Positions 1,338 to 28,141 of a DNA stretch of 64,000 bases are shown piece after piece (position 1 is the stretch's first letter; every line of letters starts with the position of its first letter). Location of the stretch: IMG/VR virus record IMGVR_UViG_3300026136_000008. One strand, given 5' to 3'. The position numbers and the translations under genes are program-made. This DNA comes from a virus. Below the pieces are notes generated by a model. The model was not told the DNA's origin, did no database searches, and worked only from the letters and a program-made list of their open reading frames with translations.

Positions 1338-1338
1338 T

Positions 1339-3201: not shown

Positions 3202-3206
3202 GGTTT

Positions 3207-5216: not shown

Positions 5217-5225
5217 TTAGAAATG

Positions 5226-5906
5226 TTACGCGTGAACTTCGTAAGTCCTCATATTTGGCTTAGAGCCGAACTTGAAAGACGCATCTGAATGATGTTCTTG
5301 TCTTGAGCGAGAAGTATCAGCGATACCAACACCCATTAACAATACAGTCTTCTTACCTTCAGGAACACCCAGTATTTCGTTAACTTTTTCTACATGGAAA
5401 CACTTGCAACATCCAGTTGAATAACCCATCATTGTTGATACAAGGTTTACATAACCTGCAGCAATACCTACTGCCTGGTCACGATCTTCCTTATATGAAA
5501 AATGTTCTTTTGAACCACCCATCTTTTCAGACTCACTAATATTACGAACTTCTTCGCCATATTGTTTTACATCGTCTTCAACAAATGCATATACTGTATG
5601 AGCAGATAGTTGTGAGTTAGTTGGTCCCGTACCTTCGTCATAACCTTGTAGACCATCAAATCCTAAGAATGAATTGTCTTCACTACCAAACTCAGGAATA
5701 GCAGTAGCAGCTTCGATTTGTTCAATCATAGCACGATCTGTTATCACGTGGGTTTTATAGTGGTTAAGGTTTTGCTTAGTAGGGCATTGAGTAGCCGCTT
5801 CAGTTATCAAGTCGATATCTTCTTGTGGCATTTCCTTGCTTAAATCCCAGTTGCGATTGCAATGCTGAGATTTATGTATAGATTTTTTAATCATTGATCT
5901 AAACAT
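5226..5906 (-). CDS. Nitroreductase-family flavoprotein
   Basis: SQHCNRNWDLSKEMPQEDIDLITEAATQCPTKQN and AVGIAAGYVNLVSTMMGYSTGCC fit the nitroreductase fold; AAGGAG SD. Confidence 0.7.
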   Translation of the reverse strand: MFRSMIKKSIHKSQHCNRNWDLSKEMPQEDIDLITEAATQCPTKQNLNHYKTHVITDRAMIEQIEAATAIPEFGSEDNSFLGFDGLQGYDEGTGPTNSQLSAHTVYAFVEDDVKQYGEEVRNISESEKMGGSKEHFSYKEDRDQAVGIAAGYVNLVSTMMGYSTGCCKCFHVEKVNEILGVPEGKKTVLLMGVGIADTSRSRQEHHSDASFKFGSKPNMRTYEVHA

Positions 5907-5925
5907 TTTTTTCTCCTTATGTTAT

Positions 5926-6008
5926 AAAAACGTAAGATTGCAATCATGAGATTATTCCGGATAGTCCTTCTCCGTTGTTACTGAACGATTTCGAATAATT
6001 GCTCTTAC
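5926..6008 (-). ncRNA. Candidate structured late RNA (small RNA or 5' leader/attenuator)
   Basis: Nested pairings GTAAGA/TCTTAC, GCA/TGC, ATTATTC/GAATAAT, GTTC/GGAC around AGTA...GAA; starts at the predicted +1 and is followed by GTTTTT. Confidence 0.4.
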
Positions 6009-6013
6009 AGGTG

Positions 6014-6021
6014 TATTTATA
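6014..6021 (-). promoter_or_regulatory. T4-type late promoter
   Basis: TATAAATA immediately after the upstream stop codon. Confidence 0.7.
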
Positions 6022-6468
6022 CTAATCTTTACTTCTACGTGCAGCTAATTCAGCCTTCATAGCATCATACTTATCTTTCCTACGCTGATCTACTGCTGCT
6101 TGTTCTGCCTTTCTTCTTGCTCTTCGTTGTGCAGCCCATGGACCGACAACATTAGTAAATATTAAAAATCCGATTACGCCGTATAAAACGGTTTCTGTTA
6201 AATTTGCAAACATAAATGCCCTCAGTTGTTCTTCATTTCCAGCTTCTATCTCACTTATTTGTGGTTTGTCATCAGGTAATACTGAATCGACTGCTACTGA
6301 TGTTGCTGCATTCACTGCCGCTGGAATAGGGCCTGCTACAACGTATGTGGCACCAGTAGTTGCCGCTGTTTTAATTAAATTCTTGGGATCTAATGCGTTG
6401 AATCCGCCTAACATACTACATCCACTTATAGAAAGGGCTAATGTGCCCGCTAATATTTTCTCAATCAT
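6022..6468 (-). CDS. Lipoprotein with a C-terminal TM helix (unimolecular-spanin-like topology)
   Basis: Lipobox ISG-C with Ser at +2; TM VLYGVIGFLIFTNVVGPW; basic tail. Confidence 0.55.
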   Translation of the reverse strand: MIEKILAGTLALSISGCSMLGGFNALDPKNLIKTAATTGATYVVAGPIPAAVNAATSVAVDSVLPDDKPQISEIEAGNEEQLRAFMFANLTETVLYGVIGFLIFTNVVGPWAAQRRARRKAEQAAVDQRRKDKYDAMKAELAARRSKD

Positions 6469-6472
6469 ACAC

Positions 6473-7459
6473 TTATTTATATGGTTTTAGCGGTGCAATG
6501 CCAACTATATGTATTCGCGGTTCAAGTGATGAATTAATTGCTGTATGTGGTTTAGTAGTATCAAAGTAATATGGATAACCATTATCAGGTACATGGAATA
6601 ATCTCCACTTATCATCTGTCATAAAAGCCCATTCATTTGTTTCTACTACTAAATGTATACGTGGAGTAGGATCAAAATGGAATGTATAACAACCTTTAGG
6701 TGGTAGAACCATTAATCTAGTTCTTGTTAAGCCTTCAGTTTGTATAAACCTTGCAATCTCTGAATCTTCAGGGACGTTAAGCTTATTAAAATCATTTTCA
6801 GAAGATCCATCTGGTAACTTATCTATTTGTAATAAACCAGTATAGAAGTCTTTACCATCACGTGATTGTAACATAATTTGATTATCATGTAAATCAGGTA
6901 AGTCTTTTATTTCTTCACGTATTCTTGTAAGATTATATTTACGGTTAATCTTTTTATGTTGCGCTGCATACATGCCAGAATACTTATATAGCTTATCTGA
7001 TCTTTTCATTTGTTCGCTTGACCTATCATCATCAGGTAGTATTGTCATTTCCTTTACACGATTTGGATTTAATAATACCCATTCAATAGTATCAAGAACA
7101 GATTGAAGTGTCATTTTATTGTCAGATATATCAGCAACTCTTTCAGTATCTAACCAACCAAAACGTAAAGCTGTGGTATTCATGCCTAAATAGAATAGTT
7201 GTTCGTTTGCTTTATCTAATGCAGCTTTCTCAACAGCGTATACATGCTTCCATTTTTTAAAGCCATCCCCGCTGTTTGAGCTTATGTTAATTGCAGTTTT
7301 ATTTAAGTCATAAGCTTTATATAACATTTCTACTTGACTAAATCCATCATGCTTACAATTAATAAACACATCACATTCTTCGAGAGACTCAACTGTATTT
7401 AATCTATCGTGAAGGTACTTACCTAACCCTCGTCTAATCCCCGTTATATAAAACTTCAT
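6473..7459 (-). CDS. Fusion of a minimal SDR-like domain and an Asp/Asn beta-hydroxylase-like Fe/2OG oxygenase
   Basis: ITGIRRGLG and YAVEK (SDR); RLMVLPPKGCYTFHFD, PHTAIN, RIHIV (HxD...H...R). Confidence 0.7.
   Translation of the reverse strand: MKFYITGIRRGLGKYLHDRLNTVESLEECDVFINCKHDGFSQVEMLYKAYDLNKTAINISSNSGDGFKKWKHVYAVEKAALDKANEQLFYLGMNTTALRFGWLDTERVADISDNKMTLQSVLDTIEWVLLNPNRVKEMTILPDDDRSSEQMKRSDKLYKYSGMYAAQHKKINRKYNLTRIREEIKDLPDLHDNQIMLQSRDGKDFYTGLLQIDKLPDGSSENDFNKLNVPEDSEIARFIQTEGLTRTRLMVLPPKGCYTFHFDPTPRIHLVVETNEWAFMTDDKWRLFHVPDNGYPYYFDTTKPHTAINSSLEPRIHIVGIAPLKPYK
6474..6481 (-). promoter_or_regulatory. T4-type late promoter
   Basis: TATAAATA-N5-ATG(6468), overlapping the upstream stop codon. 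Confidence 0.65.
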
Positions 7460-8939
7460 TTAAATCGCCATTGTAAAATATGTATTGTTTATTATTAGGA
7501 TATATAATCTCTAATTTTTCTGGGTGTACTTGCCATGATGTAGAATCTTTAATGTCTTCTTGAACACCAAAAATATGAGGAAGTTCTTTTAATAATTTAT
7601 GAAAAAACAGCGGTGATTTATCACGTGACCAATAAGCTACTTTATGTTCTTGAAAGTATCCTAATAATTCAAATACGTATTTAAGCTCTTCCCAATCATC
7701 TACTTTATCTAATAGTGTTGATCCATCTGTTTTATATTGGTCAAATTCAAAATACCTTGAAAAAATCCTTGCTGCTTTACCATGTTCTTGTACACCACTT
7801 GCAAACATCGGTGGTAGTTGTCTATGGTATATTTCTTTGCCTCTTACATCATGCTTATATCTTTTATGTTTTAGTAATGGACCAAATACAATATTGTATA
7901 CCCACATCTTATCTAGGTGCAATCCTTTTTCTGAATAGTTATCTGCTAATCTATGGTTGTGCCTCTCTTTTTCCATTAATTTAAATGCATTTGCGCACAG
8001 CTCAAGTTCTTTATAAGTTAATTTAGGATTTACTTTTCCTCTCCATATATAAGGTACTACCTTTTCGCCCTTAGGTAAATATCTAATTGGAGGTATTCTA
8101 TCCCATTCTTCTATAGGTAATTTATTATATTGTGGACCACATAAAATTCCATGTATATCTTTTTCAGTCCATGTTCGTGATCTTCTACCTTCAGATCTAT
8201 AACATGTGATATGAGCAATTAATCTACGTCCACTAAATATATCGCAATCAGTTACTACATCTTCATAAGCATGATATTTATTTTTATAATGAAGCTGTAC
8301 TGAATTTGCTATTGTATTTAATTCTAAGCCATCTCTCCAAACCCTTTGATCTTTCATAGGCTCTTGTATGATAGCATGACGAGCCCCATATGCTTGTTGT
8401 ATATCTTGAAAATATCTCTGATGTTGTTGCGGTTCATATAATAAAACACCTGACCATATTAAACAATCAACTTTATAATCAACTTGATAGGCAACTTCTA
8501 CATTAGGTGTTGCGTCACTTGCAAATATATCATCTATAAATTTATATGTACCAACTTTATATTCTATGCCTGGAAATTCTTCCCACACCTTTTGTGCGTA
8601 TTCAATAGATTCTGTACTTGTATCAAATCCAAAGTAACGATAATCCTCGTCGATATAACCTCTCTCATATAATATATCATTTACTGGGCCGTGTCTACAA
8701 CCAATATCGACTATGGTCTTATGACCAAATTTCATTATATAATCTGCTTGAGCTTCGAATATAGGTTTAGCTTCATCACTATCTAAATAATCCATACTAT
8801 AATGCCTATATTCTTCTTGCAAAGGAACCTTATCGTACTCACCCTCCGGCAACCTAGGCCAAGGCATTCCATTTACAAAGTGCGGTTCTTTAGTTTCTAT
8901 TTCAGGAGTATGTTTTTTCCACATGTTCTTTAAATTCAT
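7434..8939 (-). CDS. Class I SAM-dependent methyltransferase domain fused to an unknown C-terminal domain
   Basis: IVDIGCRHG motif I, YFGFDTS motif II, DCLIWSGVLLY. Confidence 0.65.
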   Translation of the reverse strand: MNLKNMWKKHTPEIETKEPHFVNGMPWPRLPEGEYDKVPLQEEYRHYSMDYLDSDEAKPIFEAQADYIMKFGHKTIVDIGCRHGPVNDILYERGYIDEDYRYFGFDTSTESIEYAQKVWEEFPGIEYKVGTYKFIDDIFASDATPNVEVAYQVDYKVDCLIWSGVLLYEPQQHQRYFQDIQQAYGARHAIIQEPMKDQRVWRDGLELNTIANSVQLHYKNKYHAYEDVVTDCDIFSGRRLIAHITCYRSEGRRSRTWTEKDIHGILCGPQYNKLPIEEWDRIPPIRYLPKGEKVVPYIWRGKVNPKLTYKELELCANAFKLMEKERHNHRLADNYSEKGLHLDKMWVYNIVFGPLLKHKRYKHDVRGKEIYHRQLPPMFASGVQEHGKAARIFSRYFEFDQYKTDGSTLLDKVDDWEELKYVFELLGYFQEHKVAYWSRDKSPLFFHKLLKELPHIFGVQEDIKDSTSWQVHPEKLEIIYPNNKQYIFYNGDLNEVLYNGD

Positions 8940-9483
8940 TATATGTTTTATTTATACCTCTCCAGGCAAAGCAAAATATAGCTCGAGGTGCTTCAACCAC
9001 TTGTACATCATGTAAGTAAGCAGTGTTTAATAATACTGGCTTGTCAACCAGTATTTCCCCCATCTGTATTGCTGGATATTTGTCTTGCAACATATTCCAA
9101 TGAGTCTTGCCATGCCTATATTCTAATTGATGTTGATGTGTTTCGTATATGCCAATCTTTGCTTGACCAAACATAGGTAATAATAAATTAAATTGATTGC
9201 CTTCTCTCTCATCAAAATCTATATGAGGTGGAACACCCGATCTTAAAGTACCATTTAAGTTAAAGCCCGTACCGTGTTCGCACATACCCATATGAGCGTC
9301 TGATCCCCATGTTAATAATCTATCCCATTGTCTATAATAATCTGGGTTAGATATAAGAACATGTGATTCAGTACCACATTCGATATACTCTAAGGCTGTC
9401 TCACCACGAACTTCATTATGCATTCGTATAAGCCAATCTTTATCATAATCGACATTAACATATTCAGCTATTCCACTTAGCAT
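8902..9483 (-). CDS. Cupin / Fe-2OG oxygenase-like protein
   Basis: PPHIDFD...FNLLLP...LNTAYLHDV...PRAIF. Confidence 0.55.
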   Translation of the reverse strand: MLSGIAEYVNVDYDKDWLIRMHNEVRGETALEYIECGTESHVLISNPDYYRQWDRLLTWGSDAHMGMCEHGTGFNLNGTLRSGVPPHIDFDEREGNQFNLLLPMFGQAKIGIYETHQHQLEYRHGKTHWNMLQDKYPAIQMGEILVDKPVLLNTAYLHDVQVVEAPRAIFCFAWRGINKTYNEFKEHVEKTYS

Positions 9484-10099
9484 CCCATTCCTTATATTGT
9501 TCTACCCATTTTTGTGGTCTATCTTTCATGTCAGGTTTTCTTTCTTTCGGTTCATTTAACCAATAATTATTATGGTCAAATATTTCAATACATACATCTT
9601 TGACCCATTCATAATTACCTGGCACACATTCTTTCCAGCCATTGTTCATGCAAAAAGTATCATAAACTATACCACCCATTTTCTCTATTAAATGTCTTGT
9701 CATATCAAAATGTCTATGCCCAGCATTTTTTGTTACAGGTGTAAATGTTATTACATAGATAGGTTTATTTGAGAATGGTCCATCTTGACCAAGATCAGAA
9801 TTAAAATGTGTTGAACATATTATCCAATCCATTGCATTCTTAAATCCAACAGAATAATGAGCAGTAGCTTCAGGTACTGCAAACACTAATATATCTGCCT
9901 CTTTAATAACCTTTAAAAAGTTATGTACACGAGCTAAGACTTTACCATCAGCACTATTCTTATTACAAATAGGCATATTAAAATCTGTCATGTCATACAC
10001 GTAATCAAGACCCATTAATCCTAGGCCTCGTGTGTTCATGGAATTTTCTGCGTAACTAAAGGATATTCCTGTAATTACACTTTTAGTATGCGCCGACAT
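9464..10099 (-). CDS. NAD(P)H-dependent FMN reductase family protein
   Basis: IKEADILVFAVPE...YSVGFKNAMDW...FSNKP. Confidence 0.8.
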   Translation of the reverse strand: MSAHTKSVITGISFSYAENSMNTRGLGLMGLDYVYDMTDFNMPICNKNSADGKVLARVHNFLKVIKEADILVFAVPEATAHYSVGFKNAMDWIICSTHFNSDLGQDGPFSNKPIYVITFTPVTKNAGHRHFDMTRHLIEKMGGIVYDTFCMNNGWKECVPGNYEWVKDVCIEIFDHNNYWLNEPKERKPDMKDRPQKWVEQYKEWDAKWNS

Positions 10100-11030: not shown

Positions 11031-11847
11031 GGTATTGTATCGGCGATCTCCTATGAATAGTATGCAACTGGTCCATAATTAATAAGTCGCCTCGTCTAAA
11101 TACATGATGAACCATATATTTTGATTTAAATAATGTTTGCCATAAATCATCTTTAAAATGTTTAAATTCGTGACCAGTTAATCTTACACCGTTTCGACTA
11201 GCACCCACCATAAAAGGCACACAAAAATATAAGTATTCTCTACCATCAACTGGATGTACACCTACGAGTGGTCTACGATCAAGATCCTCATGATGATTGT
11301 TAGCATTTTTATCTCTATAATGTTTTATACCAGTTCTAATTTCACCTGATGGTTCCGGATCATCTTCTGAGTCATGTTCAGATATAGCATATATAGCATC
11401 ATTTACATGGTCAAGATGTATATCAAATTCTCTAAAATAGTTTTGTCTTTCTTCAGATAATTCAGCAAAGCAATCTACTTGGCTACATATAGAAAGAACT
11501 GTATCAATGCATTCCTCAACACAATACAATGATACTATTATATCCTCGAACTCGTGCCGTGCCGATCCATTCTGATGCCACTCTAATTCAGTATCACCAA
11601 ACATTCCAATACGTTTACCTTCCTCATTCCTCTGTCCAGATACAATACTAATTTCTCTGGCATTTACTGGATTCATAAAGTATTCATTACGATCCATTTT
11701 ACCGAATCGCTTACATGCTTCAATGTGTTGTTGTTGTGTTAGATTTTGTTCGTGAAGTACTATGCTACCATCTTGTACTACTTTTAATGCTAAATCTTTT
11801 ATTTGTTCGTCGCTATAATCTAATATCTGTAATGTCATCTTGTCCAT
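10978..11847 (-). CDS. TauD/TfdA-family dioxygenase (HxN variant)
   Basis: LEWHQNG; PLVGVHPVDGREYLY; HVFRRGDLLIMDQLHTIHRR; RQLWR. Confidence 0.8.
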   Translation of the reverse strand: MDKMTLQILDYSDEQIKDLALKVVQDGSIVLHEQNLTQQQHIEACKRFGKMDRNEYFMNPVNAREISIVSGQRNEEGKRIGMFGDTELEWHQNGSARHEFEDIIVSLYCVEECIDTVLSICSQVDCFAELSEERQNYFREFDIHLDHVNDAIYAISEHDSEDDPEPSGEIRTGIKHYRDKNANNHHEDLDRRPLVGVHPVDGREYLYFCVPFMVGASRNGVRLTGHEFKHFKDDLWQTLFKSKYMVHHVFRRGDLLIMDQLHTIHRRSPIQYLERQLWRTAFDYTNIKF

Positions 11848-12445
11848 CCAAACTAAACATAAAGGCTATACGTGGTTCTTCACTTTGATTAAATACTCCG
11901 TGTGCAAATCCAGTATTAAAGAAATATGCTTTGCCTGCTTCTAAATGTGTCTCTATAATTTCACCTTTTACCTTAAATCTATTTATCACTTTCTTATTTG
12001 TATAAACTGGTATCACAACCCTTGTTGCATAGGTAGGATCATAATCGATATGCATCGGAACATCAGTATTCCCATCAAGTTTAGTAATACGAATTCTCAT
12101 CTTATCGCATTTAAATTGATTAGCTATTTCTTCAAAGTAACTTCCAATAAATTTATCGTTTGGCTTATTATATAATTTCTCTTCGTTTCTTCTCAATCTT
12201 TCTTTTATATCATCAGTATATGGTAACTCTTCACCGTTAAGCTCAGTTAAGTTTATTTGTTTAAAGTTATCGTATACAGATTTACTCAACGCCATATGGT
12301 TATCACATAGTGCTTTGTTCGCAGTTTTAACATCAACATATTCGGCAGCTAAAACATCTGTTGCTGCTTGAAGCTTGCCAAGATCTATATTGATATGTTT
12401 TAATTCACCATGTGTTGGTAACTTATATTTTGTTCTTGGTTTCAT
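11813..12445 (-). CDS. Asp/Asn beta-hydroxylase-like Fe/2OG oxygenase
   Basis: RIRITKL...PMHID...FNTGFAHGVFN...PRI; start placed at ATG 12445 behind a late promoter. Confidence 0.7.
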   Translation of the reverse strand: MKPRTKYKLPTHGELKHINIDLGKLQAATDVLAAEYVDVKTANKALCDNHMALSKSVYDNFKQINLTELNGEELPYTDDIKERLRRNEEKLYNKPNDKFIGSYFEEIANQFKCDKMRIRITKLDGNTDVPMHIDYDPTYATRVVIPVYTNKKVINRFKVKGEIIETHLEAGKAYFFNTGFAHGVFNQSEEPRIAFMFSLDGQDDITDIRL

Positions 12446-12450
12446 ATACT

Positions 12451-12458
12451 TATTTATA
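12451..12458 (-). promoter_or_regulatory. T4-type late promoter
   Basis: TATAAATA-N5-ATG(12445). Confidence 0.7.
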
Positions 12459-12461
12459 TGG

Positions 12462-13406
12462 CTATACAACATAGTTATGATGTTTCCTTAAATGCGATTT
12501 ATACCATTTAGCCGTACGCAATAATCTACGTGGCTTATCCTTTAATATGTCTGGTCTTCTATGTATACCTATTACATTATCAAATAAACATATGTCGCCT
12601 TCCTGCCATTTGTGTTTATATGTGTACTTTTCATTACATACATAATCTTCCCATAACTCATAAAATAATTTTTTAGAGTGTTCATACGGTTCACCATCTT
12701 TTAAAAATCCGTGTACTTCATACGGGCTAAAGAATAAACCTTCAGGGCCGACTGGATGATCAGGTACAAGTTTATGGTTATTCATTATACCACGAGATGC
12801 ACCAAACTTATGTTTATTCTCAGGCTCCATGTTTAAACAGTTAACTATCTCACGAGTATTTCTATTCTTATTAATCTCATCAAGAACTTCTTGACCATAT
12901 ATTTTTTTAAATGATGGTTGCCAAGCTTTTTTAATAACACCTAATTCCCTTTTAGGATCAAGCACAACAGTAAGTTGTCTCAATAAATCTTTCTTATGTT
13001 CATGTAATTGTTTAAAATACGGCAGTGAATTAGCAAACCAAGTTTCAGTATCATATGTGATTGTCTTTGCGTATAAGCCTATGACTTCCTCAGCATCAGC
13101 AACTGGTGTCATATTTGTATGCCAATCTAATTCATAGTCACCAAACAATCCTTGGTTCCTATCATCCATCATCTCATTTGTTACAGTCCAGAATAAATCA
13201 GAATGTTCCTTATCAGTACACCATATCTCTGGACTTAAATGATAACCCACACCAAGCGACCACTCAGCATATTCTTCAGGTGTTGCACCGCTATCACGTA
13301 TAACAACAACTCCAGCATGAGCAACCATTCTTGCTATATTATCTGGATCTAAATCTTCTAATGGAATTTCTAAATAAGTTGGTACTACCATAGTGGTGTT
13401 AAGCAA
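12462..13406 (-). CDS. TauD/TfdA-family dioxygenase (HxN variant)
   Basis: LDWHTNM; YKHKWQEGDICLFDNVIGIHRR; PRRLLR; true start may be ATG 13391. Confidence 0.8.
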   Translation of the reverse strand: MLNTTMVVPTYLEIPLEDLDPDNIARMVAHAGVVVIRDSGATPEEYAEWSLGVGYHLSPEIWCTDKEHSDLFWTVTNEMMDDRNQGLFGDYELDWHTNMTPVADAEEVIGLYAKTITYDTETWFANSLPYFKQLHEHKKDLLRQLTVVLDPKRELGVIKKAWQPSFKKIYGQEVLDEINKNRNTREIVNCLNMEPENKHKFGASRGIMNNHKLVPDHPVGPEGLFFSPYEVHGFLKDGEPYEHSKKLFYELWEDYVCNEKYTYKHKWQEGDICLFDNVIGIHRRPDILKDKPRRLLRTAKWYKSHLRKHHNYVV

Positions 13407-16784: not shown

Positions 16785-16929
16785 TCTTGTAAAATTCCTC
16801 TGAGTTATGATTTGCTTTAAATTGTTTTATCCATATATTGTTTGCATTATGCGAACTTATAACTCGTGCGGCTTCTAACTGAAGTTCACGTGTATCAAAA
16901 GTATTTATAAGCTCTTCTATTGCGTCCAT
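16699..16929 (-). CDS. Hypothetical protein, 76 aa
   Basis: Bridges two genes of the operon with overlaps. Confidence 0.55.
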   Translation of the reverse strand: MDAIEELINTFDTRELQLEAARVISSHNANNIWIKQFKANHNSEEFYKNVIRWYIIEYGGFPSEVEPGSKIKLLYV

Positions 16930-19989: not shown

Positions 19990-21146
19990 TAACTTAGCCT
20001 CTCGCTTAATTCAACATTTAGTTTTGAGCACCGCTTTGTGCAAACTTTTAATTTAGGCATGACCTCATCGTCATACGAATTAGACCAAGATTTCTCTAAG
20101 TCTTCTGTAAAGAATGGATGATTTACTATCTCATCCCATGTATGATAATTTATATTATTCCAATTCTCGTCATAGTTATCCATAAATCTTTCCCAAGCAT
20201 GTTTATCACCTGAGTTTAATCTTGTCCAATAGTTATAATTAGACTGATGCCAACAACATCTATATACTCCACCATCGTGTGATATTTGCCACATACCATT
20301 TTCAGACCATTCACATACTATACCAGATTTTTCTTTTGCATTATCTAGATTCTGTTCTACACTTAAAGCAGGATTAATCTCAACATCTTGTATGAGTGTC
20401 TTCGCTTTTTCTGCCACCTCATCTAAATTACTCTTAGGTGATAAATTGATTTCTGCATCACGCATATCTTTATAATCTGCATCTTCACCTTTCATAGCTT
20501 TAAAGATGGCTAACTTACTTGCTACTTGTTCTATTCGCTGTACTCTATCTCTATGAAATTCTGCAAACCCATATTCTGTGGCTAACTCTTTTGCTCTTTC
20601 TTCTAGTGGTTCATTAAATTCAAATGGAATCATTTTCCAACATGCAGTACCACCCGCACCTATAAATGCTTTTGCATTTGCAATAATCTTATCAAAGCTA
20701 GTATTGATTCTATACATTTCTTGTGTTTCATTATCGACACCATCTAAATCAAAAAAGATTTTATGACGATCTACACCATCAACAGTAGGTAAATGCTCAC
20801 TTAATATAGCACCAAGTTTTGCCCACCATTTTGGATTACGCATAGATGCATTAGTAGATATAGTAAGCATCTCTATATCTTTCTTTGCTGCGTATTCTAT
20901 CATCTCTAGAAATTTTGGATGAAGAGGAGAATCACCAAATCCACCATCGTATGATATATACTTTAATGGAGAAGCCTCATCAAGTAATTTGTTATGAGCT
21001 TCTAATGTCATATTAATATTTTTTGGCGGACCGCCAATTTCATCTGTAACAGAATTAATTACTTTATGGCGTATACACCCAGGGCATTTTGCCTGGCAAT
21101 TTGATGTAACCTCTATGGTTAATTGATCTAATCTATTATCAAGCAT
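19989..21146 (-). CDS. Radical SAM/SPASM protein
   Basis: CQAKCPGC, GGFGD, C-terminal C...YRCC...CTKRC. Confidence 0.88.
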   Translation of the reverse strand: MLDNRLDQLTIEVTSNCQAKCPGCIRHKVINSVTDEIGGPPKNINMTLEAHNKLLDEASPLKYISYDGGFGDSPLHPKFLEMIEYAAKKDIEMLTISTNASMRNPKWWAKLGAILSEHLPTVDGVDRHKIFFDLDGVDNETQEMYRINTSFDKIIANAKAFIGAGGTACWKMIPFEFNEPLEERAKELATEYGFAEFHRDRVQRIEQVASKLAIFKAMKGEDADYKDMRDAEINLSPKSNLDEVAEKAKTLIQDVEINPALSVEQNLDNAKEKSGIVCEWSENGMWQISHDGGVYRCCWHQSNYNYWTRLNSGDKHAWERFMDNYDENWNNINYHTWDEIVNHPFFTEDLEKSWSNSYDDEVMPKLKVCTKRCSKLNVELSERLS

Positions 21147-22317
21147 TTACATAATCCCATATTTTAGGAGCCATCTCTTTTGCAGATACATCATATAATT
21201 CATCTTGTAGTTTTACTAGTTCTTTAAACTTATATGTATCTATTGTTCTTTTACCTGTCAATCTCTTTAAGAATTCTTTTGTAAAATCATTTTCATCTGT
21301 ATTTGCTAACAAATGAAGCTTGACATCTTCTTCAAGATTTACAATATCCATAACCTGAGGCCAATGAACAAATGTAGCTCTTATATTTGCAGGTGTATCA
21401 ATTGAGTCTCTTATATCACACAAGTCTTTATATATTTCATTCATATAAAAAGCCTGATATGATGATGTAGTACACACAAATAAAAACTTAGTTACATATG
21501 GTGCAATCTCTTTTATATTATTTATAACTGTTTGGTAATCTCCCCCAGTTCTAAAGTAATTAAACAGATCGCCTGTGCCATCCATAGATACTGTTACATT
21601 TACACCTTTAAAATGCGGCCAAAGATCTTTAACATTATATCCTTTATATTCTAAGATACTCATATTTGTATTGTATATAAGTTGAATCTTTTTCGTATCA
21701 ATGTTTGGATCATCTATCATTCTATGTAAGTGTTTATACATATCTCGTGTATAGAATGGTTCACCACCAGAAAATTCTATTCCTTCTACTCCACGCGGTA
21801 TAACATTTTTAAATAAATCATCAATAACTTCAGTAGCCGGAACAGGAATCTTTTCTTTAGGTGTAGATATATGTGTGAATTGAAAATCCTTTCTTAATTT
21901 TGTTTCTATCTCAGGGAATTGTCTACCAGTTAATTCGAATCTTGAATTAGATGCTGTGTCACAATGTCTACACTGATAGTTACAAGCTCGGGTTGCTTTG
22001 ATCTGTAAATCTTTTATATAGATATTATCACTATCATAATCAGGTTCAGATATATGAGCAATGTCTAGTGATCGTGTTCTATACGAAGATACTCCAGCCT
22101 CTTCTTGTATTTTACAATCTATACAACCATTTGGAAATACACCATTACGAAGTTGCTGACGAACCTTTACAAAGTCACTATTATTAATTACTTCAGAAGG
22201 AAGTTTATCACTACCTGATTCTACAAAGTCATGCCTTTTAAAACGAAAGCATGGAGCATATCCACCTTTCTTGAAGTCTAAATGACCCCAAGCATATTTA
22301 CATTTTAGCATCCCCAT
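21139..22317 (-). CDS. Radical SAM protein with N-terminal twitch-type domain
   Basis: CKYAW...PC...CIDC; CNYQCRHC; SGGEPF; VSMDG. Confidence 0.88.
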   Translation of the reverse strand: MGMLKCKYAWGHLDFKKGGYAPCFRFKRHDFVESGSDKLPSEVINNSDFVKVRQQLRNGVFPNGCIDCKIQEEAGVSSYRTRSLDIAHISEPDYDSDNIYIKDLQIKATRACNYQCRHCDTASNSRFELTGRQFPEIETKLRKDFQFTHISTPKEKIPVPATEVIDDLFKNVIPRGVEGIEFSGGEPFYTRDMYKHLHRMIDDPNIDTKKIQLIYNTNMSILEYKGYNVKDLWPHFKGVNVTVSMDGTGDLFNYFRTGGDYQTVINNIKEIAPYVTKFLFVCTTSSYQAFYMNEIYKDLCDIRDSIDTPANIRATFVHWPQVMDIVNLEEDVKLHLLANTDENDFTKEFLKRLTGKRTIDTYKFKELVKLQDELYDVSAKEMAPKIWDYVNA

Positions 22318-23543
22318 CCTTCTTCAATAAACTCAGCAAGCTCAGGATTATAATCTTCTAATTTTGAATCATAATATTTATCTAAAGCAACAATCTTTTC
22401 TTTGAATCTTGCCCATCGTTTATGGTTATACTCTTCTTTTTTAAATAATTTATGTCTTTGACTATCAAGTTTTAACATAGCATCATCTGACATCTCGACT
22501 TTACTCCATTCTTCTTCTAACCAATCTAAATATTCAGCGGGCGCATAATGAGGACAATAGTCACCATCTTTTACTATTAATCTTGACACACTACACTCTG
22601 GATAATTCTCAGCAAACCATACTATATCACCAGCTAATCCATTTAAATTTAATAATGAATATGTTGAATGCACATGATGTTTAACCATTTTATAAATTTT
22701 AGAATGATACCATTTATAAATTTCTAATGTCTCTTTCCAACCAGGAGAACCCCAACGTTGATATGAATTATAATCATTGCACCCATCTAATGAGCAAGTA
22801 AGAATAATTTCTTTAAATAAATTTAACTTATCTATTATTCGTTCATCGACTTTATTTGTACAATTACTTACAATCTCAAGTCTTAAATTTTCTGGTTTAG
22901 CTTCTTCTATTAAATGATCTAATAGTTTTTCAAAATTAGGTGAATAAAATGGTTCACCGCCAAGGATTTTAAGATGCTGTAACTCGGACCAATCTACACC
23001 AAGAGATTTAATAAATTCAATTCTTTGTTTAGGAATCTTTGTAGGTTTTCTACTTCCAAGATTAGTTACTTTATCATTATATACAAATTCTACGTTTATT
23101 AGATGTTCATCTCTTCTATATAAATTACTTGAAAACATTGAGTCACACATCTTGCATTGAAGATTACATATATTATCAAGGCTAATTTCCATGCCTTTTA
23201 AACCAATAAAATTTTCATCTAAATTTTGTAAGTCTAATCTATAGTCAGTATTAGCTTGTCCTCGCATAGACATAGGTTGCATTTTATCTGGGTAAGATGC
23301 TTCATTTAAATAACATTCATTACATTCTTCTATCTTTTCACCAGCAAGCATCTTTACTCTCATCCATTTAAATGCATCTTCTAAGGTATCATTAGTATTC
23401 TCACCGAGTTTTACAGTGCCTCTACCACGCAGACTAATACCACAGCATGGTCTTAAAGAATTTTCCATTGTTACAGTAGTATGAACCCAAGGATACATGC
23501 ATACTACACCATTATCTTTACCATCATAATCGTATCTACTCAT
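22305..23543 (-). CDS. Radical SAM protein with N-terminal twitch-type domain
   Basis: CMYPW...PCC...CNEC; CNLQCKMC; LGGEPF. Confidence 0.9.
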   Translation of the reverse strand: MSRYDYDGKDNGVVCMYPWVHTTVTMENSLRPCCGISLRGRGTVKLGENTNDTLEDAFKWMRVKMLAGEKIEECNECYLNEASYPDKMQPMSMRGQANTDYRLDLQNLDENFIGLKGMEISLDNICNLQCKMCDSMFSSNLYRRDEHLINVEFVYNDKVTNLGSRKPTKIPKQRIEFIKSLGVDWSELQHLKILGGEPFYSPNFEKLLDHLIEEAKPENLRLEIVSNCTNKVDERIIDKLNLFKEIILTCSLDGCNDYNSYQRWGSPGWKETLEIYKWYHSKIYKMVKHHVHSTYSLLNLNGLAGDIVWFAENYPECSVSRLIVKDGDYCPHYAPAEYLDWLEEEWSKVEMSDDAMLKLDSQRHKLFKKEEYNHKRWARFKEKIVALDKYYDSKLEDYNPELAEFIEEGWGC

Positions 23544-24669
23544 TTATTATATCCTCAAATCTGTCATCTAAATCTAATATATTTTGATTTCTAATTTTAT
23601 CTTGTTTAGCTACAACATGTTTAAAAGCATAATTCTTTTCTTTGTCAAATTTGCTGGCTTGTAAAATACTAATAGCTTCTTCAGCTTCTAGAGTTTTTCT
23701 TCTCCATACTTCACCCGTTTGCTGATGTCTATCATCATAATTTTCAATCCATCTTTTTAACCAGGCTATTTGATAATCTTTATATTCATCTGGTATAGCA
23801 TCAAGATTATATTCTACTGGCCAAAATACAACACCAAAGAATAATGGAATATTAAATTCCATCAGCTCATCCCACCATGTATCAAGCACTGGCATATTAA
23901 TAGCAGTAGCAGTTAATTGAATTTGTAAATTCTTAAAATGCTTTTTATATTTCCATATATTTTGTTTAATTTCATTCCAATTACTTTTATGTCTTTGGTA
24001 TTCTTGTACAGGGCCTGCGGCATCAACAGATAAAGTTATTTCAAGTTTGCCAGTAATAGAGTGAAGCTTATTAAACCATTTATCAGATGCGTTAGTTGCA
24101 TTAGTAGTTATACCAACATACATATCAAGATCTTTAATATGGTCAATCCACTTTCTTATTTCTAAATCAATAGAAGGTTCACCGCCTAATATCATAAGTT
24201 TTTTACAATTAGACAAATCTATATCATAAGCATCTGAAGTATCTAAGTGCATTACTTCAACTCCCTTTTCTTCTTCAATCAAGCTAGATGCACCTTCCCA
24301 ACACATGCGACACATTAAATTACATTTATTACCTGGTCTATAATCGAATCTTACTACTTTGTTTTCACTATTGAAGTCTGCAGGATAACCTTCGTATTTC
24401 TGTCTTCTTGATAAAACATTAGGAATATTTCTCTCTTCGGTATTAGTACACTCAATACATGCCGGATGAATTTCATCTTCATACATTAACTGTTTAAAGT
24501 CTTTTAAGTAATCAGAATCCTTATAGTCTGTATATGTACCTTTAAAAACATCACCTTTCCATTCACAGCAGGGTTTACATCCTACTGTACCTTCATAAGC
24601 TAAGCCTAGCCAGGGTGCTTTACAATATGGTTTAGTTCGCATCAAACATTTCTCTGTATTGTGGTACAA
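23536..24669 (-). CDS. Radical SAM protein with N-terminal twitch-type domain
   Basis: CKAPW...PCC...CIEC; CNLMCRMC; LGGEPS; likely start ATG 24642. Confidence 0.9.
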   Translation of the reverse strand: MYHNTEKCLMRTKPYCKAPWLGLAYEGTVGCKPCCEWKGDVFKGTYTDYKDSDYLKDFKQLMYEDEIHPACIECTNTEERNIPNVLSRRQKYEGYPADFNSENKVVRFDYRPGNKCNLMCRMCWEGASSLIEEEKGVEVMHLDTSDAYDIDLSNCKKLMILGGEPSIDLEIRKWIDHIKDLDMYVGITTNATNASDKWFNKLHSITGKLEITLSVDAAGPVQEYQRHKSNWNEIKQNIWKYKKHFKNLQIQLTATAINMPVLDTWWDELMEFNIPLFFGVVFWPVEYNLDAIPDEYKDYQIAWLKRWIENYDDRHQQTGEVWRRKTLEAEEAISILQASKFDKEKNYAFKHVVAKQDKIRNQNILDLDDRFEDIINE

Positions 24670-25969
24670 TATCTCTTATATCTTGACCTCGTATCTCATC
24701 TAGTTGATTTGTTATATCAATGAAGCCTTGTAAATGATCTTTAGAATAATCTTCTGATTGCATGAATCTTATTGTACTATCTAATACTTGATAGAAATGT
24801 TTTTTTACTTTGTCTGAATAGTCAGTACCTTTCATCCATTCTTTATACAATTCATAATGATCTTCTACGTCATCTTTCAACATTTGAGGAAGTACTTTAA
24901 TGTTATAATATTTTGGTGAGTGGCACATATGCTGAGTTATAGTCGGCCGTAAACCATCAATAGGATTATATCTGTCTAATCCACTCTCTTCTAATTTCCA
25001 TTTAATAAACTCAGGCATATGATATACATTATATGGTGTAACAGTAAATGTAAACCAGCATTTTAGATTTACATCACGATTGTCATTTAGCTTTTTCATA
25101 TGGTTATACACGGAATCCCATTTAGCTGGTGTACGTTGATAATCAAATACAGCTCCATATCCATCAACAGATGCACCTACACGGATCTGTTTAAACTGTG
25201 ACCATAACTCCATGTATTTGTTTGTTACATTTGTTAGATTAGAATTATATTCTATTTCGATATTATGCGCATTACCACCATCAACTAATCGTTGTAAACT
25301 CTCTTCGTGTTCTTTAATAATAAGAGGTTCACCGCCGACAATATAAAGTTTTTTTGCTGTATGTGCATATTTTTCAAAGTTATCCCAGTAAATAGGAGCA
25401 TCTTTAAACCAATCATATTGATCAGTCGTCCATTTACCTGTAGGAGTTTGATGTAGTTCTATACGAGTGTGAGTATCTTTATATGTTGTTGCACCACTTA
25501 GTTTAACATAATCAGGATACCACATATGAGAATCTGTTGGTCCACACATTCTACATTTAAGATTACAGAAATTACCATAACGTATATCAAAGAATTCAAT
25601 AAGTTGTTTATCTACATCAAGAGTTCCATCCTCCATTGTGATTGGAATAGCTGTTTCTTTTTTTATTTCCCAATCGTTATTCTCATATTCTCGACGAGAT
25701 GGAATACCATTAATCTCTTCTTGTCTACAGCGTTCACATTCAGGATGCCATTCATCTTTTAGCATAGCTGCACGAACTTCCTTTAATATGTCAGCGTTCC
25801 TTGCCTCATTAAAGTCATCTTTTCCAGCGTTATATATTGTACCATCTTCCTTACGCATTATACCTTTTTTAGGTGAATATGAATTTGTATTACAACAAAT
25901 CCTCATATCACCATTATTTCTTAGGTTAATAGAGTTCCAAGGAAGTGGACAGAAGGTATCTTTTTTCAT
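24632..25969 (-). CDS. Radical SAM protein with N-terminal twitch-type domain
   Basis: CPLPW...ICC...CERC; CNLKCRMC; VGGEPL. Confidence 0.92.
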   Translation of the reverse strand: MKKDTFCPLPWNSINLRNNGDMRICCNTNSYSPKKGIMRKEDGTIYNAGKDDFNEARNADILKEVRAAMLKDEWHPECERCRQEEINGIPSRREYENNDWEIKKETAIPITMEDGTLDVDKQLIEFFDIRYGNFCNLKCRMCGPTDSHMWYPDYVKLSGATTYKDTHTRIELHQTPTGKWTTDQYDWFKDAPIYWDNFEKYAHTAKKLYIVGGEPLIIKEHEESLQRLVDGGNAHNIEIEYNSNLTNVTNKYMELWSQFKQIRVGASVDGYGAVFDYQRTPAKWDSVYNHMKKLNDNRDVNLKCWFTFTVTPYNVYHMPEFIKWKLEESGLDRYNPIDGLRPTITQHMCHSPKYYNIKVLPQMLKDDVEDHYELYKEWMKGTDYSDKVKKHFYQVLDSTIRFMQSEDYSKDHLQGFIDITNQLDEIRGQDIRDIVPQYREMFDAN

Positions 25970-26012
25970 ATAAATAAACTTATGTTAATCAATTTATTAT
26001 TATTTATATGAA
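25965..26012. promoter_or_regulatory. 13-bp inverted repeat holding two face-to-face late promoters and both start codons
   Basis: TTCATATAAATAA (25965-25977) and TTATTTATATGAA (26000-26012); TATAAATA at 25969-25976 (+) and 26001-26008 (-). Confidence 0.7.
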
Positions 26013-26685
26013 TTATAAGACTACTAAAATAGAAATACCAAAGACTGGAAATTTACTTTTGTGGGTATCTGGCGGACTTGATTCAGCATTAGGATTATAT
26101 ACTATAGCTAAACATATTAAAGAAAATAAACTAAAGAATAAAATTGTTGTAGCTACATGGAAAAGAGACGCAGATGATAATCCTAAAAAGGGTAAACCTG
26201 CTAAAGATTGGAATGTTACCCACGCTAAAAAAGTTATGACATGGGTTGAAAAAGAATTAAAATTAACAAAGACTCAGAAGTTTCAACATATTATTGTAGA
26301 TACTCCACCTAAAGATGGTTTAAGAATTGATAACGATCAATGGCAGAAAGTATTTGATGATAATAAAAAGAAATACAAATTAAAAGAGTGTTACGGATTT
26401 GTTACTAAAAACCCATCTAGACCTGTTATGATAGAACATGATTTATATACTGATGATAGACCTGCTTATAGAGATGGTGCAAAAAGATATCATCCTGAAA
26501 AACCATTTCAAAATCATGATAAAGCTTGGGTAGCCCGTTGTTTTGAATCGGAAGGTTTAATGAAAGGTTTATTTCCTTTAACAAGATCTTGTGAAGGCCA
26601 GGCAGATGAAACAAAAAACTTTACTAAACCATGTAAGAAATGTTGGTGGTGTAAAGAGAAATACTGGGCTTTTAAACAGTATTAA
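26008..26685 (+). CDS. QueC-like PP-loop ATP pyrophosphatase (only plus-strand gene in the island)
   Basis: VSGGLDS; PFQNHDK; LTRSCEG...CKKCWWC. Confidence 0.75.
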   Translation: MNYKTTKIEIPKTGNLLLWVSGGLDSALGLYTIAKHIKENKLKNKIVVATWKRDADDNPKKGKPAKDWNVTHAKKVMTWVEKELKLTKTQKFQHIIVDTPPKDGLRIDNDQWQKVFDDNKKKYKLKECYGFVTKNPSRPVMIEHDLYTDDRPAYRDGAKRYHPEKPFQNHDKAWVARCFESEGLMKGLFPLTRSCEGQADETKNFTKPCKKCWWCKEKYWAFKQY

Positions 26686-28108
26686 TTACTAGCGGAAAGT
26701 CATTGTTTGGTTTATGATAGTCTTGAAGCCAAGATAGTTCTGGGAAGATTGCATTAAAATCTTGTCCTCTTTCTTCTGCAACACGATAACACCATTCAGC
26801 AGTCTCAGGTAATCGTACAGACCAATCTTCTGCATTCATGAATGAGGCAATACCTTTAAGTCTATCAATAGTATAATTGTTTTCCATGAAAGCTTCTTTT
26901 GTTGGTGCACCAGATAATTCCCAGTTCTCTTCTAACCATGGATAGAAAGCCTCATACTTTTCAGTAACCTTCTTCTTAAAATCTAATGGCAACGCTTTAC
27001 AATTTAATTGAGGCGGCCAATATGCCAGATGGTTATCAATCATACCTCCACCCTGAGGCCATGTATTTAACAGCTTCCATTTATTTGTTAATTTCCATTT
27101 AACGAAATCTGGTATAGACCATATGTTGAGTAGTTGTATAGTATAAGCTGTTGTAAGCCTAAGGTTTCCATGAGGATAGTTATCTAACTCCCTCATTTTT
27201 TCAGTGAGATGGTCGAATGTTGCAGGATATCTTATATAATGCAACCTATCTCCCATATCATCAATAGAGAAATGAAATATAACTTCCTTAAAATGCTTCC
27301 ATAAATCGAACAAGTTGTCGTCCCACTCCATTCCGTTTGAGTTATATCTCACTTCAATCTCGCTAGCATAACCATCTTCAATGATTTGCTCTAATAATTC
27401 ATAATGTTCTTTCATTACAAGTGGTTCACCACCTGCCCAATACAATTGTTTTAGTTTAGGTATTTGTTCGTATAGTTCATCAAAGAACATAGGATTCTTT
27501 TTATGCCATGCATAACTTGCACCTACGAAGGCTAACTTACCTGTCTCCTTCTCCCAACGCATTGTTTTTTCTAAATTTTCATTCTTTAATTTAGGATGTA
27601 TTTTTTTATGTTCTACAATCCAACCCGAAGAATCGTTCGGTGAACACATAACACAGGCTAACTGACACTTAGACCCAAGGCGAAGATCCACGTATCGGAT
27701 TTGTGGTGGTACTGAACCAGTCTCTGGATCGTAACCTTCTAATACTGACTCTAAACCTAATTTATTAATCCATTTTGTGGTCTCCCACATCCTCTTAGAT
27801 CTATGTCCTGCATCTTCCTCTTTGTAACACTTAATACAACTATTAGGTTTCTCACCACGCATCATTGCTTTACGTGTACCTCTCATATAAGCATTATTCC
27901 ATGCTGATTCTAATGATGTATTGGCAAGATTAGAAGGCATACCATCATCATTCTTTAGAATGCCAATGTCTGATTCTATCTTATCTTGAGAGTCTGGATT
28001 CTGAACACCGGAAGCGTTAGCTGTACAACATACGCGCATGTGTCCGTTTGGTCTTGTTGAGAGGTGTACCCATGGAAGAGCACAAAAAGTTTCACTTGGA
28101 TAATTCAT
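26672..28108 (-). CDS. Radical SAM protein with N-terminal twitch-type domain
   Basis: CALPW...VCC...CIKC; CQLACVMC; AGGEPL. Confidence 0.92.
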   Translation of the reverse strand: MNYPSETFCALPWVHLSTRPNGHMRVCCTANASGVQNPDSQDKIESDIGILKNDDGMPSNLANTSLESAWNNAYMRGTRKAMMRGEKPNSCIKCYKEEDAGHRSKRMWETTKWINKLGLESVLEGYDPETGSVPPQIRYVDLRLGSKCQLACVMCSPNDSSGWIVEHKKIHPKLKNENLEKTMRWEKETGKLAFVGASYAWHKKNPMFFDELYEQIPKLKQLYWAGGEPLVMKEHYELLEQIIEDGYASEIEVRYNSNGMEWDDNLFDLWKHFKEVIFHFSIDDMGDRLHYIRYPATFDHLTEKMRELDNYPHGNLRLTTAYTIQLLNIWSIPDFVKWKLTNKWKLLNTWPQGGGMIDNHLAYWPPQLNCKALPLDFKKKVTEKYEAFYPWLEENWELSGAPTKEAFMENNYTIDRLKGIASFMNAEDWSVRLPETAEWCYRVAEERGQDFNAIFPELSWLQDYHKPNNDFPLVINTV

Positions 28109-28113
28109 AACAA

Positions 28114-28121
28114 TATTTATA
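28114..28121 (-). promoter_or_regulatory. T4-type late promoter at the head of the enzyme island
   Basis: TATAAATA-N5-ATG(28108). Confidence 0.7.
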
Positions 28122-28141
28122 AGGGCTCCGAAGAGCCCTTA
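28120..28141 (-). terminator. UUCG hairpin after the tail-fibre operon
   Basis: TAAGGGCTC-TTCG-GAGCCCTTA; no proper U tract (it runs into TATAAATA). Confidence 0.65.

Follow-up and report, generated by a model that had tools for sequence, protein, structure and literature searches.

A radical SAM-rich enzyme island beside the tail-fibre genes of a marine T4-like phage, a candidate pathway for glycoconjugate tailoring

We analysed a window of 64,000 nucleotides (IMG/VR record IMGVR_UViG_3300026136_000008; "the window" is this whole stretch) from an uncultured marine T4-like myophage. Next to its tail-fibre genes it carries an island of 25 tightly packed open reading frames (ORFs) at 5226-28108, 24 on the minus strand and one on the plus strand (26008-26685), most of which overlap or abut. 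They comprise 24 enzymes, eight of them radical S-adenosylmethionine (SAM) enzymes, and one membrane lipoprotein. Our tentative reading, to which we give a slightly less than even chance, is that the island encodes one late-transcribed, cytoplasmic and modular pathway for sugar-type (glycoconjugate) tailoring and forms part of the host-recognition region. That the pathway acts on the virion itself is a more doubtful proposition.

The sugar reading draws on the GT-A fold of a glycosyltransferase (GT) in the island, on GT8-like genes among the fibre genes, and on the recurrent linkage of the island's core enzymes to GT-A or GT2 genes in cells and in other phages. The transferase is the product of 15981-16784. 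A Foldseek search with its predicted model matched the catalytic domain of UGGT, LgtC, GlyE and glycogenin at E values of 3e-8 to 1e-5 (TM 0.57-0.63). Of the 273 PDB matches at E <= 1e-3, the top ones listed are all glycosyl- or sugar-phosphate transferases. The two aspartates of its DxD motif are invariant in 40 homologs. The protein has no Pfam match and stays under the Glyco_transf_8 gathering threshold; it is called GT8/GT24-like by its modelled fold and not by a sequence-based family assignment. Since GT8-like paralogs of the island lie among the fibre genes (Table 1), a physical and evolutionary tie between the island and the fibre module is supported. No collagen-like GXY runs were found in the structural proteins.

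Radical SAM enzymes, conserved core and cellular relatives

All eight radical SAM enzymes, recognised with Pfam and NCBIfam, carry the CxxxCxxC motif and auxiliary-cluster cysteine sets of the SPASM/twitch type, with the auxiliary domain N-terminal in five. These five pass the curated cut-off (170 bits) of the NCBIfam model NF033640 (N_Twi_rSAM, N-terminal twitch) over the full model length with 182-391 bits, whereas the other three, at 38-59 bits, are not members. Among 12 aligned sequences, the five N_Twi paralogs included, C9, C27, C91, C94, C148, C152 and C155 are invariant, the N-terminal auxiliary-cluster set lying ahead of the CxxxCxxC core. The likeness to the catalogued family thus extends to both cysteine sets; what differs here is that the five paralogs fall in five old, separate clades, two of them with sister clades in Bdellovibrionota and three of them phage-only long branches, in a FastTree tree that has several long branches and is to be read with the usual long-branch caveats. 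The first radical SAM gene (26672-28108) has matches in 3965 database clusters, and in the PDB the N_Twi profile matches SkfB best (E 1.6e-10). PDB sequence searches with 16917-18050 and 18041-19090 gave nothing usable.

Gene order is conserved along the whole island in two further phage lineages, G001, which is the nearest record and a 50.8-kb IMG/VR fragment, and G002/G004. The comparison with G002 separates the island into a conserved core and a variable shell. The baseplate and VrlC proteins, our structural baseline, are 63-79% identical between the two phages. Above this baseline stand the island proteins (named here by their first coordinate) 26672 (93%), 16917 (93%), 13385 (92%), 18041 (89%), 14191 (88%), 11813 (86%) and 24632 (85%). 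The low-identity shell, in the range of 38-60%, includes 19090 (38%), 7434 (45%), 23536 (49%), 22305 (50%), 10083 (50%), 9464 (54%) and 19989 (55%). The core (85-93%), consisting of four radical SAM enzymes, a pyridoxal phosphate (PLP)-like protein and a methyltransferase-like protein, is therefore more conserved than the baseplate (63-79%). Neither megablast of the island nor tblastn of 16917-18050 gave a match in 50,697 phage records, and no close match of the window's radical SAM proteins turned up there either. Three distant phages (L007, L008 and L010) share only the radical SAM, methyltransferase-like and GT-A-like part. We also observed radical SAM arrays in contigs binned into metagenome-assembled genomes (MAGs) of Acidimicrobiaceae, Verrucomicrobiales and Chloroflexota (L018, L019 and L020); these arrays group with phage sequences (61-62% identity) and not with cellular ones, and the contigs are probably phage contigs that were binned into MAGs.

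Cellular counterparts come from predatory bacteria. When one genome per prokaryote species was scanned, proteins related to the first radical SAM enzyme at about 50% identity came overwhelmingly from Bdellovibrionota, complete chromosomes included. Their loci hold a trio made of an N_Twi gene, a 16917-type gene (57-64% identical to the phage protein) and an 18041-type radical SAM gene. Beside the trio lie a 14826-like protein, a 228-aa "DGDN" protein and Pfam-verified GT2 transferases, as well as extra N_Twi paralogs, B12-radical SAM genes, short-chain dehydrogenase/reductase (SDR) genes, PP-loop pairs, 13385-like PLP genes, cupins, TauD genes and short desaturase-like genes. Residues 1-135 of the 228-aa protein have the nucleotide-diphospho-sugar-transferase (GT-A) fold, with VIA Z of 9.3-11.4 to B4GALNT1, STIV A197, ThuS and SpsA, and with similarity to nucleotidyltransferases as well. 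A profile of this family found nothing among PDB sequences, and the family is absent from the window (hmmsearch, E <= 1). A GT-A-type gene lies within 10 kb in 30 of the 52 long cellular loci, and a gene of the 14826-15566 type accompanies the N_Twi genes in 25 of the 52. N_Twi genes occur in 31 of 151 sampled Bdellovibrionota genomes (1-11 genes each) and in none of 14 control genomes. The same association recurs in the cultured Ralstonia jumbo phage RsoM2USA, where gp347-350 encode in a row a GT-A-like, an N_Twi, a second GT-A-like and a 14826-like (methyltransferase-like) protein. Judged by gene content, these four genes of a cultured phage make up a minimal cassette.

Transcription signals and the remaining genes

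The window has 22 copies of the motif TATAAATA against 13.9 expected, a mild enrichment only. Twelve of the 22 lie at most 60 nt upstream of a same-strand start, a situation for which 2.8% of the window positions qualify; the motif thus stands upstream of gene starts as in T4-type late units. It also precedes structural genes (fibre, baseplate) at 35001, 38797, 42472 and 53950. Sigma-70-like sites are not enriched in comparison (74 found, 104.6 +/- 9.3 expected). Given the placement of TATAAATA, its sharing with fibre and baseplate genes and the lack of enrichment of sigma-70-like sites, late expression of the island is a reasonable inference. A preliminary description of this DNA, made from its letters and ORFs, had placed late promoters at 28114, 26001, 25969, 12451 and 6014. 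The motif is present at all five positions, and the one at 12451 is doubtful, being intragenic and 604 nt from the next start; further copies in the island region lie at 16902, 8949, 6474 and 5181. Four copies stand 6-10 nt before a start codon (28114-28108, 6474-6468, 53950-53943 and 8949-8939), and late mRNAs from these sites would be leaderless if transcription begins about 6 nt after the motif, in the manner of T4 late promoters.

Contigs from RNA libraries cover pieces of the island, which indicates presence and not timing; DNA carry-over is possible. In two marine RNA libraries the contig depth is 35-110 over the cupin and TauD genes (11535-13535) and 0-9 over most other parts of the island; the contigs over 11535-13535 differ from the window at many sites, which means that related phages contribute to them.

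The ORF listing, family searches and local profiles bear out the preliminary description almost gene for gene. Its account of about 24 mostly translationally coupled enzymes abutting the fibre genes matches the layout, and the motif placement and sigma-70-like counts agree with its idea of a coherent tailoring unit with late-type promoters. The eight radical SAM enzymes, the glycosyltransferase (by fold), the PLP enzyme (by a conserved D...SxSK motif and weak PDB aminotransferase matches), the desaturase, the two flavoenzymes and the SDR, which is the N-terminal half of 6473-7459, were all recovered. Other labels needed trimming. Six non-heme iron oxygenase domains had been counted: the three TauD proteins (70, 75.4 and 90 bits; Pfam PF02668 cut-off 27) and the cupin at 11813-12472 pass, the cupin half of 6473-7459 is slightly below the PF05118 cut-off at 19.9 bits, and the sixth, 8902-9483, has a motif seen by eye and neither a family nor a PDB match in family and PDB sequence searches, nor any similarity to the weak 2-oxoglutarate (2OG) oxygenase at 37015-37641. 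The HxD/E...H facial triad is altered in all three TauD proteins, which have HxN in the position of the family's HxD iron ligand: in 12462-13406 the segment DWHTN lines up with NWHTD of PDB 6d1o, and the other two have HSN and HQN. The two ATPases called QueC-like are PP-loop type by weak matches, and the QueC label is too specific (11-14 bits, cut-off 22); a PDB sequence search with 19090-19989 gave nothing usable. Of the methyltransferases, two or three methyltransferase-like proteins are present, and the assignments of 14826-15566 and of the N-terminal domain of 7434-8939 are weak. For the former, the family profile has a single PDB match (thermospermine synthase, E 0.33) and the ESM Atlas returned unnamed viral clusters only, with a weak methyltransferase lead; the C-terminal domain of 7434-8939 found nothing above chance level in the ESM Atlas. 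The enzymes of the island are devoid of signal peptides and transmembrane (TM) segments, the short desaturase excepted. The layout of the lipoprotein gene resembles that of a unimolecular spanin.

Besides tail-fibre proteins and a 1677-aa DUF4815/VrlC protein, the window encodes gp32, baseplate wedge proteins (PHROG 219, 438) and gp5-, gp53- and gp25-like proteins. In gp6 the phage shares 40% identity with Methylophilales phage Melnitz and 36% with Pelagibacter phage HTVC008M, a distant relationship. Three side observations concern the surroundings. The CHASE2 cyclase of the operon at 228-5048 is 91% identical in the G002 lineage and exceeds the structural baseline. Past the island terminator, an ORF at 5020-5175 (51 aa, very Lys-rich), which may be non-coding, lies directly behind the TATAAATA at 5181 and overlaps the end of the cyclase gene. 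A protein with a TnsA-like endonuclease N-terminal domain (57820-58362) sits between baseplate genes, with TATAAATA motifs flanking it on both strands.

Table 1. Features of the island and its surroundings (positions of the window; identities to G002 are of proteins; HMM, hidden Markov model)
Feature	Position	Strand	Evidence and remarks
Island start	28114..28141	-	9-bp-stem hairpin after fibre-gene stop, then directly TATAAATA; ATG 28108 6 nt on
N-terminal-twitch radical SAM, orthogroup 1	26672..28108	-	NF033640 391.5 bits; 93% identical in G002, ~50% in Bdellovibrionota
PP-loop-type ATPase, sole plus-strand gene	26008..26685	+	3' end overlaps neighbour; weak QueC/PHROG 1550; E 8.4e-40 to local HMM of Bdellovibrionota PP-loop pair
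Divergent TATAAATA pair, palindromic	25969..26008	both	Each overlaps the opposite gene's ATG (radical SAM 24632-25969; PP-loop 26008-26685)
N-terminal-twitch radical SAM, orthogroup 2	24632..25969	-	NF033640 363.3 bits; sister to Bdellovibrionota clade; 85% identical in G002
N-terminal-twitch radical SAM, phage-only long branch	23536..24669	-	NF033640 182.1 bits; 49% identical in G002
N-terminal-twitch radical SAM, phage-only long branch	22305..23543	-	NF033640 197.8 bits; 50% identical in G002
N-terminal-twitch radical SAM, phage-only long branch	21139..22317	-	NF033640 206.3 bits; 60% identical in G002
Radical SAM, diverged paralog of 18041 type	19989..21146	-	Pfam Radical_SAM 38 bits; local HMM E 3.5e-72
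PP-loop-type ATPase, most divergent gene of the block	19090..19989	-	38% identical in G002; weak family matches, local HMM
Radical SAM, core enzyme	18041..19090	-	Conserved auxiliary-cluster C66, C273, C274, C333, C337; 89% identical in G002, 41-51% in cellular loci
MoaA/viperin-like radical SAM, most conserved core enzyme	16917..18050	-	Invariant C-terminal Cys 307, 329, 350, 355; 93% in G002, 57-64% in Bdellovibrionota
TATAAATA	16902..16909	-	Within sole sizeable gap (133 bp), 118 nt upstream of ATG 16784
GT-A fold, GT8/GT24-like retaining-type sugar transferase (predicted)	15981..16784	-	Model pLDDT 91.3; DxD at D112/D114
165-aa protein, possibly truncated paralog of next gene	15557..16054	-	hhalign: probability 37%, E 3.6e-4, over IINxxCE motif
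Rossmann/methyltransferase-like	14826..15566	-	Motifs GGWxG, DxD, INTSCEH; weak assignment
Short membrane-type fatty-acid-desaturase-like di-iron protein	14191..14835	-	Pfam FA_desaturase 34 bits (cut-off 29.7); three His boxes
Truncated fold-type-I PLP-like protein, core	13385..14209	-	D144, S168-x-x-K171; 92% identical in G002
TauD-family Fe/2OG oxygenase, HxN for HxD	12462..13406	-	Pfam 90 bits; alignment to PDB 6d1o
Asp/Asn-beta-hydroxylase-like cupin (Asp_Arg_Hydrox)	11813..12472	-	PF05118 31.8 bits (cut-off 22.6)
Two tandem TauD-family oxygenases, both HxN	10083-11030, 10978-11847	-	Pfam; variable, 50-57% identical in G002
NADPH-dependent FMN-reductase/flavodoxin-like (FMN_red)	9464..10099	-	PF03358 51.8 bits
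193-aa protein, no known family	8902..9483	-	HxD...H motif by eye only
Two-domain protein: methyltransferase-like 1-245, domain of no assigned family 286-495	7434..8939	-	Rare, variable, 45% identical in G002; weak assignment
Fusion: SDR-like N-half, Asp/Asn-hydroxylase-like cupin C-half	6473..7459	-	Local HMMs E 1.9e-9 (SDR), 3.9e-5 (cupin); PF05118 19.9 bits
Lipobox and TM protein with basic tail, non-enzyme	6022..6468	-	148 aa; lipobox ISGC; TM ~residues 90-112; PHROG 19883
Nitroreductase-family flavoenzyme, last gene of block	5226..5906	-	PF00881 50.6 bits
Island end, intrinsic terminator	5199..5218	-	8-bp stem, T-run; strongest terminator of region
Thr/Ala/Ser/Asp-rich, cysteine-free tail-fibre proteins, abut island	28154-30445, 30463-34680	-	PHROG tail-fibre families; Mtd_N; composition
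GT8-like paralog of 15981-16784 among fibre genes	35041-35631	-	26% identity
Weak 2OG-FeII oxygenase among fibre genes	37015-37641	-	17.6 bits
Weak GT8 among fibre genes	37622-38341	-	20.9 bits (Glyco_transf_8 cut-off 24.3)
Curli-like/FecR/CHASE2-cyclase operon	228-5048	+	Curlin-repeat, FecR-domain and CHASE2-adenylate/guanylate-cyclase proteins (Pfam)
VrlC (DUF4815)	43901-48934		

A sugar-tailoring pathway and its rivals

If the island is a sugar-tailoring pathway, the GT-A transferase would put a nucleotide sugar supplied by the host on an acceptor, as its computed fold suggests. The core (16917, 18041, 26672, 24632, the PLP-like 13385 and the methyltransferase-like 14826), whose conservation and co-occurrence in cells are observed, would then make or rework the scaffold through methylation and through radical C-H and amino-group chemistry. 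The fast-changing shell (three further N-twitch radical SAM enzymes, 19989, two PP-loop ATPases, three HxN TauD proteins, the cupins, the SDR and the two-domain protein 7434), whose variability is likewise observed, would diversify the product between phage lineages. Hydroxylation, and amidation by the PP-loop enzymes, would be among the steps that decorate the transferred sugar. The FMN reductase and the nitroreductase would feed electrons, and by inference the former is a possible donor for the radical SAM clusters. As for the acceptor, gene position, late motifs and cytoplasmic enzymes lead us to favour the Ser/Thr-rich, cysteine-free fibres of the phage itself, or else other proteins of the virion that are assembled in the cytoplasm, with a glycolipid of the host envelope next.

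Several findings weigh against this pathway. The island has a sole verified glycosyltransferase (15981-16784) and no sugar-activating enzyme, and Pfam revealed neither a sugar 4,6-dehydratase nor a DegT-type aminotransferase in it; a search for NTP_transferase in five partial relatives (fragments 7-50% complete) also found none. Among the 52 long cellular loci, 22 are without a glycosyltransferase by four HMMs. The PLP-like protein resembles amino-acid and not sugar aminotransferases, members of the TauD and Asp/Asn-hydroxylase families usually have amino acids, peptides or lipids as their substrates, and the desaturase-like protein points to a hydrophobic moiety. The matches of the radical SAM enzymes to solved enzymes are all remote and, to our knowledge, no member of the catalogued N_Twi family has ever been assayed. 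Finally, the timing is deduced from motifs only, some of them just 6-10 nt from the start codon.

One rival is a remodelling of the host surface, in which envelope glycolipid, lipopolysaccharide (LPS) core or lipid would be altered late in infection, blocking superinfection or the sticking of progeny to debris, and nothing would be placed on the virion. Transfer to the LPS core is the classical role of GT8 enzymes, the fold matches include LgtC, and the PF05118 cupins and the fatty-acid desaturase/hydroxylase families include hydroxylases of lipid A and ornithine lipids. A lipoprotein/TM gene lies inside the island, the Bdellovibrionota cassette adjoins an outer-membrane beta-barrel-like gene, and a modification of the O-chain has been proposed for the GT8 genes of pelagimyophages (PMC7029224). 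Yet there is no flippase, polymerase, undecaprenyl-phosphate transferase or transporter, nearly all island proteins are soluble, late expression leaves scant time to remodel a surface, and eight radical SAM enzymes seem excessive for the masking of a receptor. We therefore regard this explanation as unlikely, although it deserves to be kept in view. The preliminary description had proposed the decoration of virion proteins or glycans, either by acyl or sugar adducts or by chemistry akin to that of ribosomally synthesized and post-translationally modified peptides (RiPPs), or else a remodelling of the host surface. The sugar branch gains direct support from the GT-A fold, and further support from the GT-A and GT2 genes of the Bdellovibrionota and RsoM2USA cassettes. 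The RiPP-like branch, in which side chains of virion proteins would be epimerised, cross-linked, methylated or hydroxylated and the sugar would be a minor step, appears to us rather improbable. It would account for the auxiliary-cluster cysteines of all eight radical SAM enzymes, since most characterised enzymes of that type act on peptides, for SkfB as the best PDB match of the profile, and for the TauD/CAS-like and Asp/Asn-hydroxylase families, which hydroxylate amino acids or proteins; the nearest GT folds also include enzymes that glycosylate proteins (UGGT, GlyE and glycogenin). However, no precursor ORF was found, the island having gaps of 39, 116 and 133 bp and all its small ORFs lying inside longer genes. 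Neither a PqqD nor another RiPP recognition element (RRE) domain was found in the eight radical SAM proteins, where Pfam identified only Radical_SAM, Fer4_12 and SPASM, although a very divergent RRE could escape. The fibres have no cysteines for thioethers, and the minimal conserved cassette (GT-A-like, N_Twi and methyltransferase-like genes) is devoid of a peptide gene.

The same enzymes could hypermodify phage DNA, or tRNA, at the polymer level, by attaching a sugar or another group to a base and editing it afterwards. DNA-glycosylating GT-A enzymes are known from phages (bioRxiv 10.1101/2023.12.21.572611), PP-loop ATPases and radical SAM enzymes occur in 7-deazaguanine routes, and Campylobacter phages have 11-12 radical SAM genes (PMC2853527). 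The preliminary description took late timing as an argument against DNA modification. This holds for precursor-level routes but not for polymer-level ones: according to PMC13326640, most hypermodified pyrimidines arise late, when groups are transferred to the DNA. Against such a role, no ThyA-like, TET/JBP or C5-methylase gene was found in the island or in the five partial relatives, which is weak evidence given that these are 7-50% complete and that the Tet_JBP control matched nowhere. No DpdA/TGT transglycosylase was seen among the Pfam-scanned ORFs of the window, and scores with the QueC and QueE models fall well short of the thresholds (15-17 bits against 206-300 for QueE). The transferase resembles GT8/GT24 and not the JGT/TarP-type DNA transferases, the island is located in the fibre and not in the replication module, and in Bdellovibrionota the same toolkit is found on the chromosome, next to genes for GT2 and outer-membrane proteins. 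We consider DNA or tRNA as the target very unlikely. Similarly small is the chance that there is no single pathway at all, and that unrelated cassettes (radical SAM, oxygenase, desaturase) have accreted at a permissive hypervariable site. The internal TATAAATA motifs at 16902, 8949, 6474 and 6014 would permit separate units, the distant phages have one part of the island only, and gain and loss of radical SAM cassettes in the host-recognition cluster have been described (PMC7029224). But gene order is preserved throughout in two lineages whose core proteins differ by about 30%, and families from both halves of the island (TauD, cupin, desaturase-like, PLP-like, SDR and PP-loop) also accompany the radical SAM arrays of cellular loci (L035, L069, L018, L038 and L084).

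Relation to known systems and implications

The layout of the window matches that of the pelagimyophages described by Zaragoza-Solas et al. 2020 (PMC7029224), whose host-recognition clusters hold GT8 genes and radical SAM cassettes that are only mentioned there. The place in the genome is the same, after VrlC among the fibre genes, with a curli operon nearby, GT8-like genes and radical SAM cassettes; the difference is that, in our searches of phage records, the cultured relatives are without the cassette. Unusually many radical SAM genes are also found in other T4-like phages, with 12 in the environmental genome TARA_ERS488813_N000010 (Nishimura et al. 2017, PMC5332604) and 11-12 in Campylobacter phages CP220 and CPt10 (Timms et al. 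2010, PMC2853527), where they are treated as Fe-S or metabolic genes and not as a pathway. Their abundance in T4-like phages had thus been noted without analysis (PMC5332604, PMC7029224, PMC2853527). The present analysis newly adds the core-and-shell pattern, the tree of N_Twi orthogroups, the minimal cassette of RsoM2USA and the correction concerning late timing, and it independently derives the link to Bdellovibrionota, the GT-A evidence and the N_Twi membership.

Other systems resemble the island in part. The RiPP maturase clusters with radical SAM/SPASM enzymes likewise combine auxiliary-cluster radical SAM enzymes in tandem with other tailoring enzymes, whereas the island has no precursor and no RRE, and its auxiliary domain is N-terminal in five of eight enzymes. 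Virus-encoded glycosylation of virions is known from mycobacteriophages. Further cases are the capsid glycans of chlorovirus PBCV-1 and the fibril glycans of mimivirus, which are made in the cytoplasm (PMC9614988). In these systems structural proteins are decorated in the cytoplasm by soluble, virus-encoded GT-A transferases together with enzymes that edit sugars or methylate. They are not known to use arrays of radical SAM enzymes; in the island, genes for sugar-nucleotide synthesis were not seen, and attachment of the product to the virion is conjectural. Glycan hypermodification of phage DNA, by C5-methyltransferase/5mYOX or ThyA-like enzymes plus a glycosyltransferase (bioRxiv 10.1101/2023.12.21.572611; PMC13326640), shares with it a late, polymer-level GT-A or GT-B transfer followed by tailoring; in the island C5-methyltransferase, TET/JBP and ThyA-like genes were not found, the GT-A type is another one and the location is the fibre module. 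On the sugar reading, the island would be a variant of virus-encoded glycan/tailoring machinery whose main enzyme family is biochemically uncharacterised.

A broader proposal, which we put forward as a speculation of low probability, is that marine phages and predatory Bdellovibrionota share a radical SAM system that builds a strain-variable and chemically unprecedented glycoconjugate on the structures that recognise prey or host (tail fibres or the predator surface). Four conserved radical SAM enzymes would make the scaffold, and a shell of rapidly exchanged paralogs would diversify it. If true, the N_Twi proteins would constitute a new class of radical SAM enzymes that edit sugars, host-range variation would gain a new layer, and new radical sugar chemistry could be drawn from the system. 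The stretch is present in marine metagenomes of about 10 further studies beyond its possible sources. As the minimal cassette occurs in the cultured phage RsoM2USA and the same core in Bdellovibrionota of cultivable type, the question can be tested at the bench. Should the product be carried by the fibres, ocean phages would have in it an unrecognised determinant of host range and of evasion of immunity or defence.

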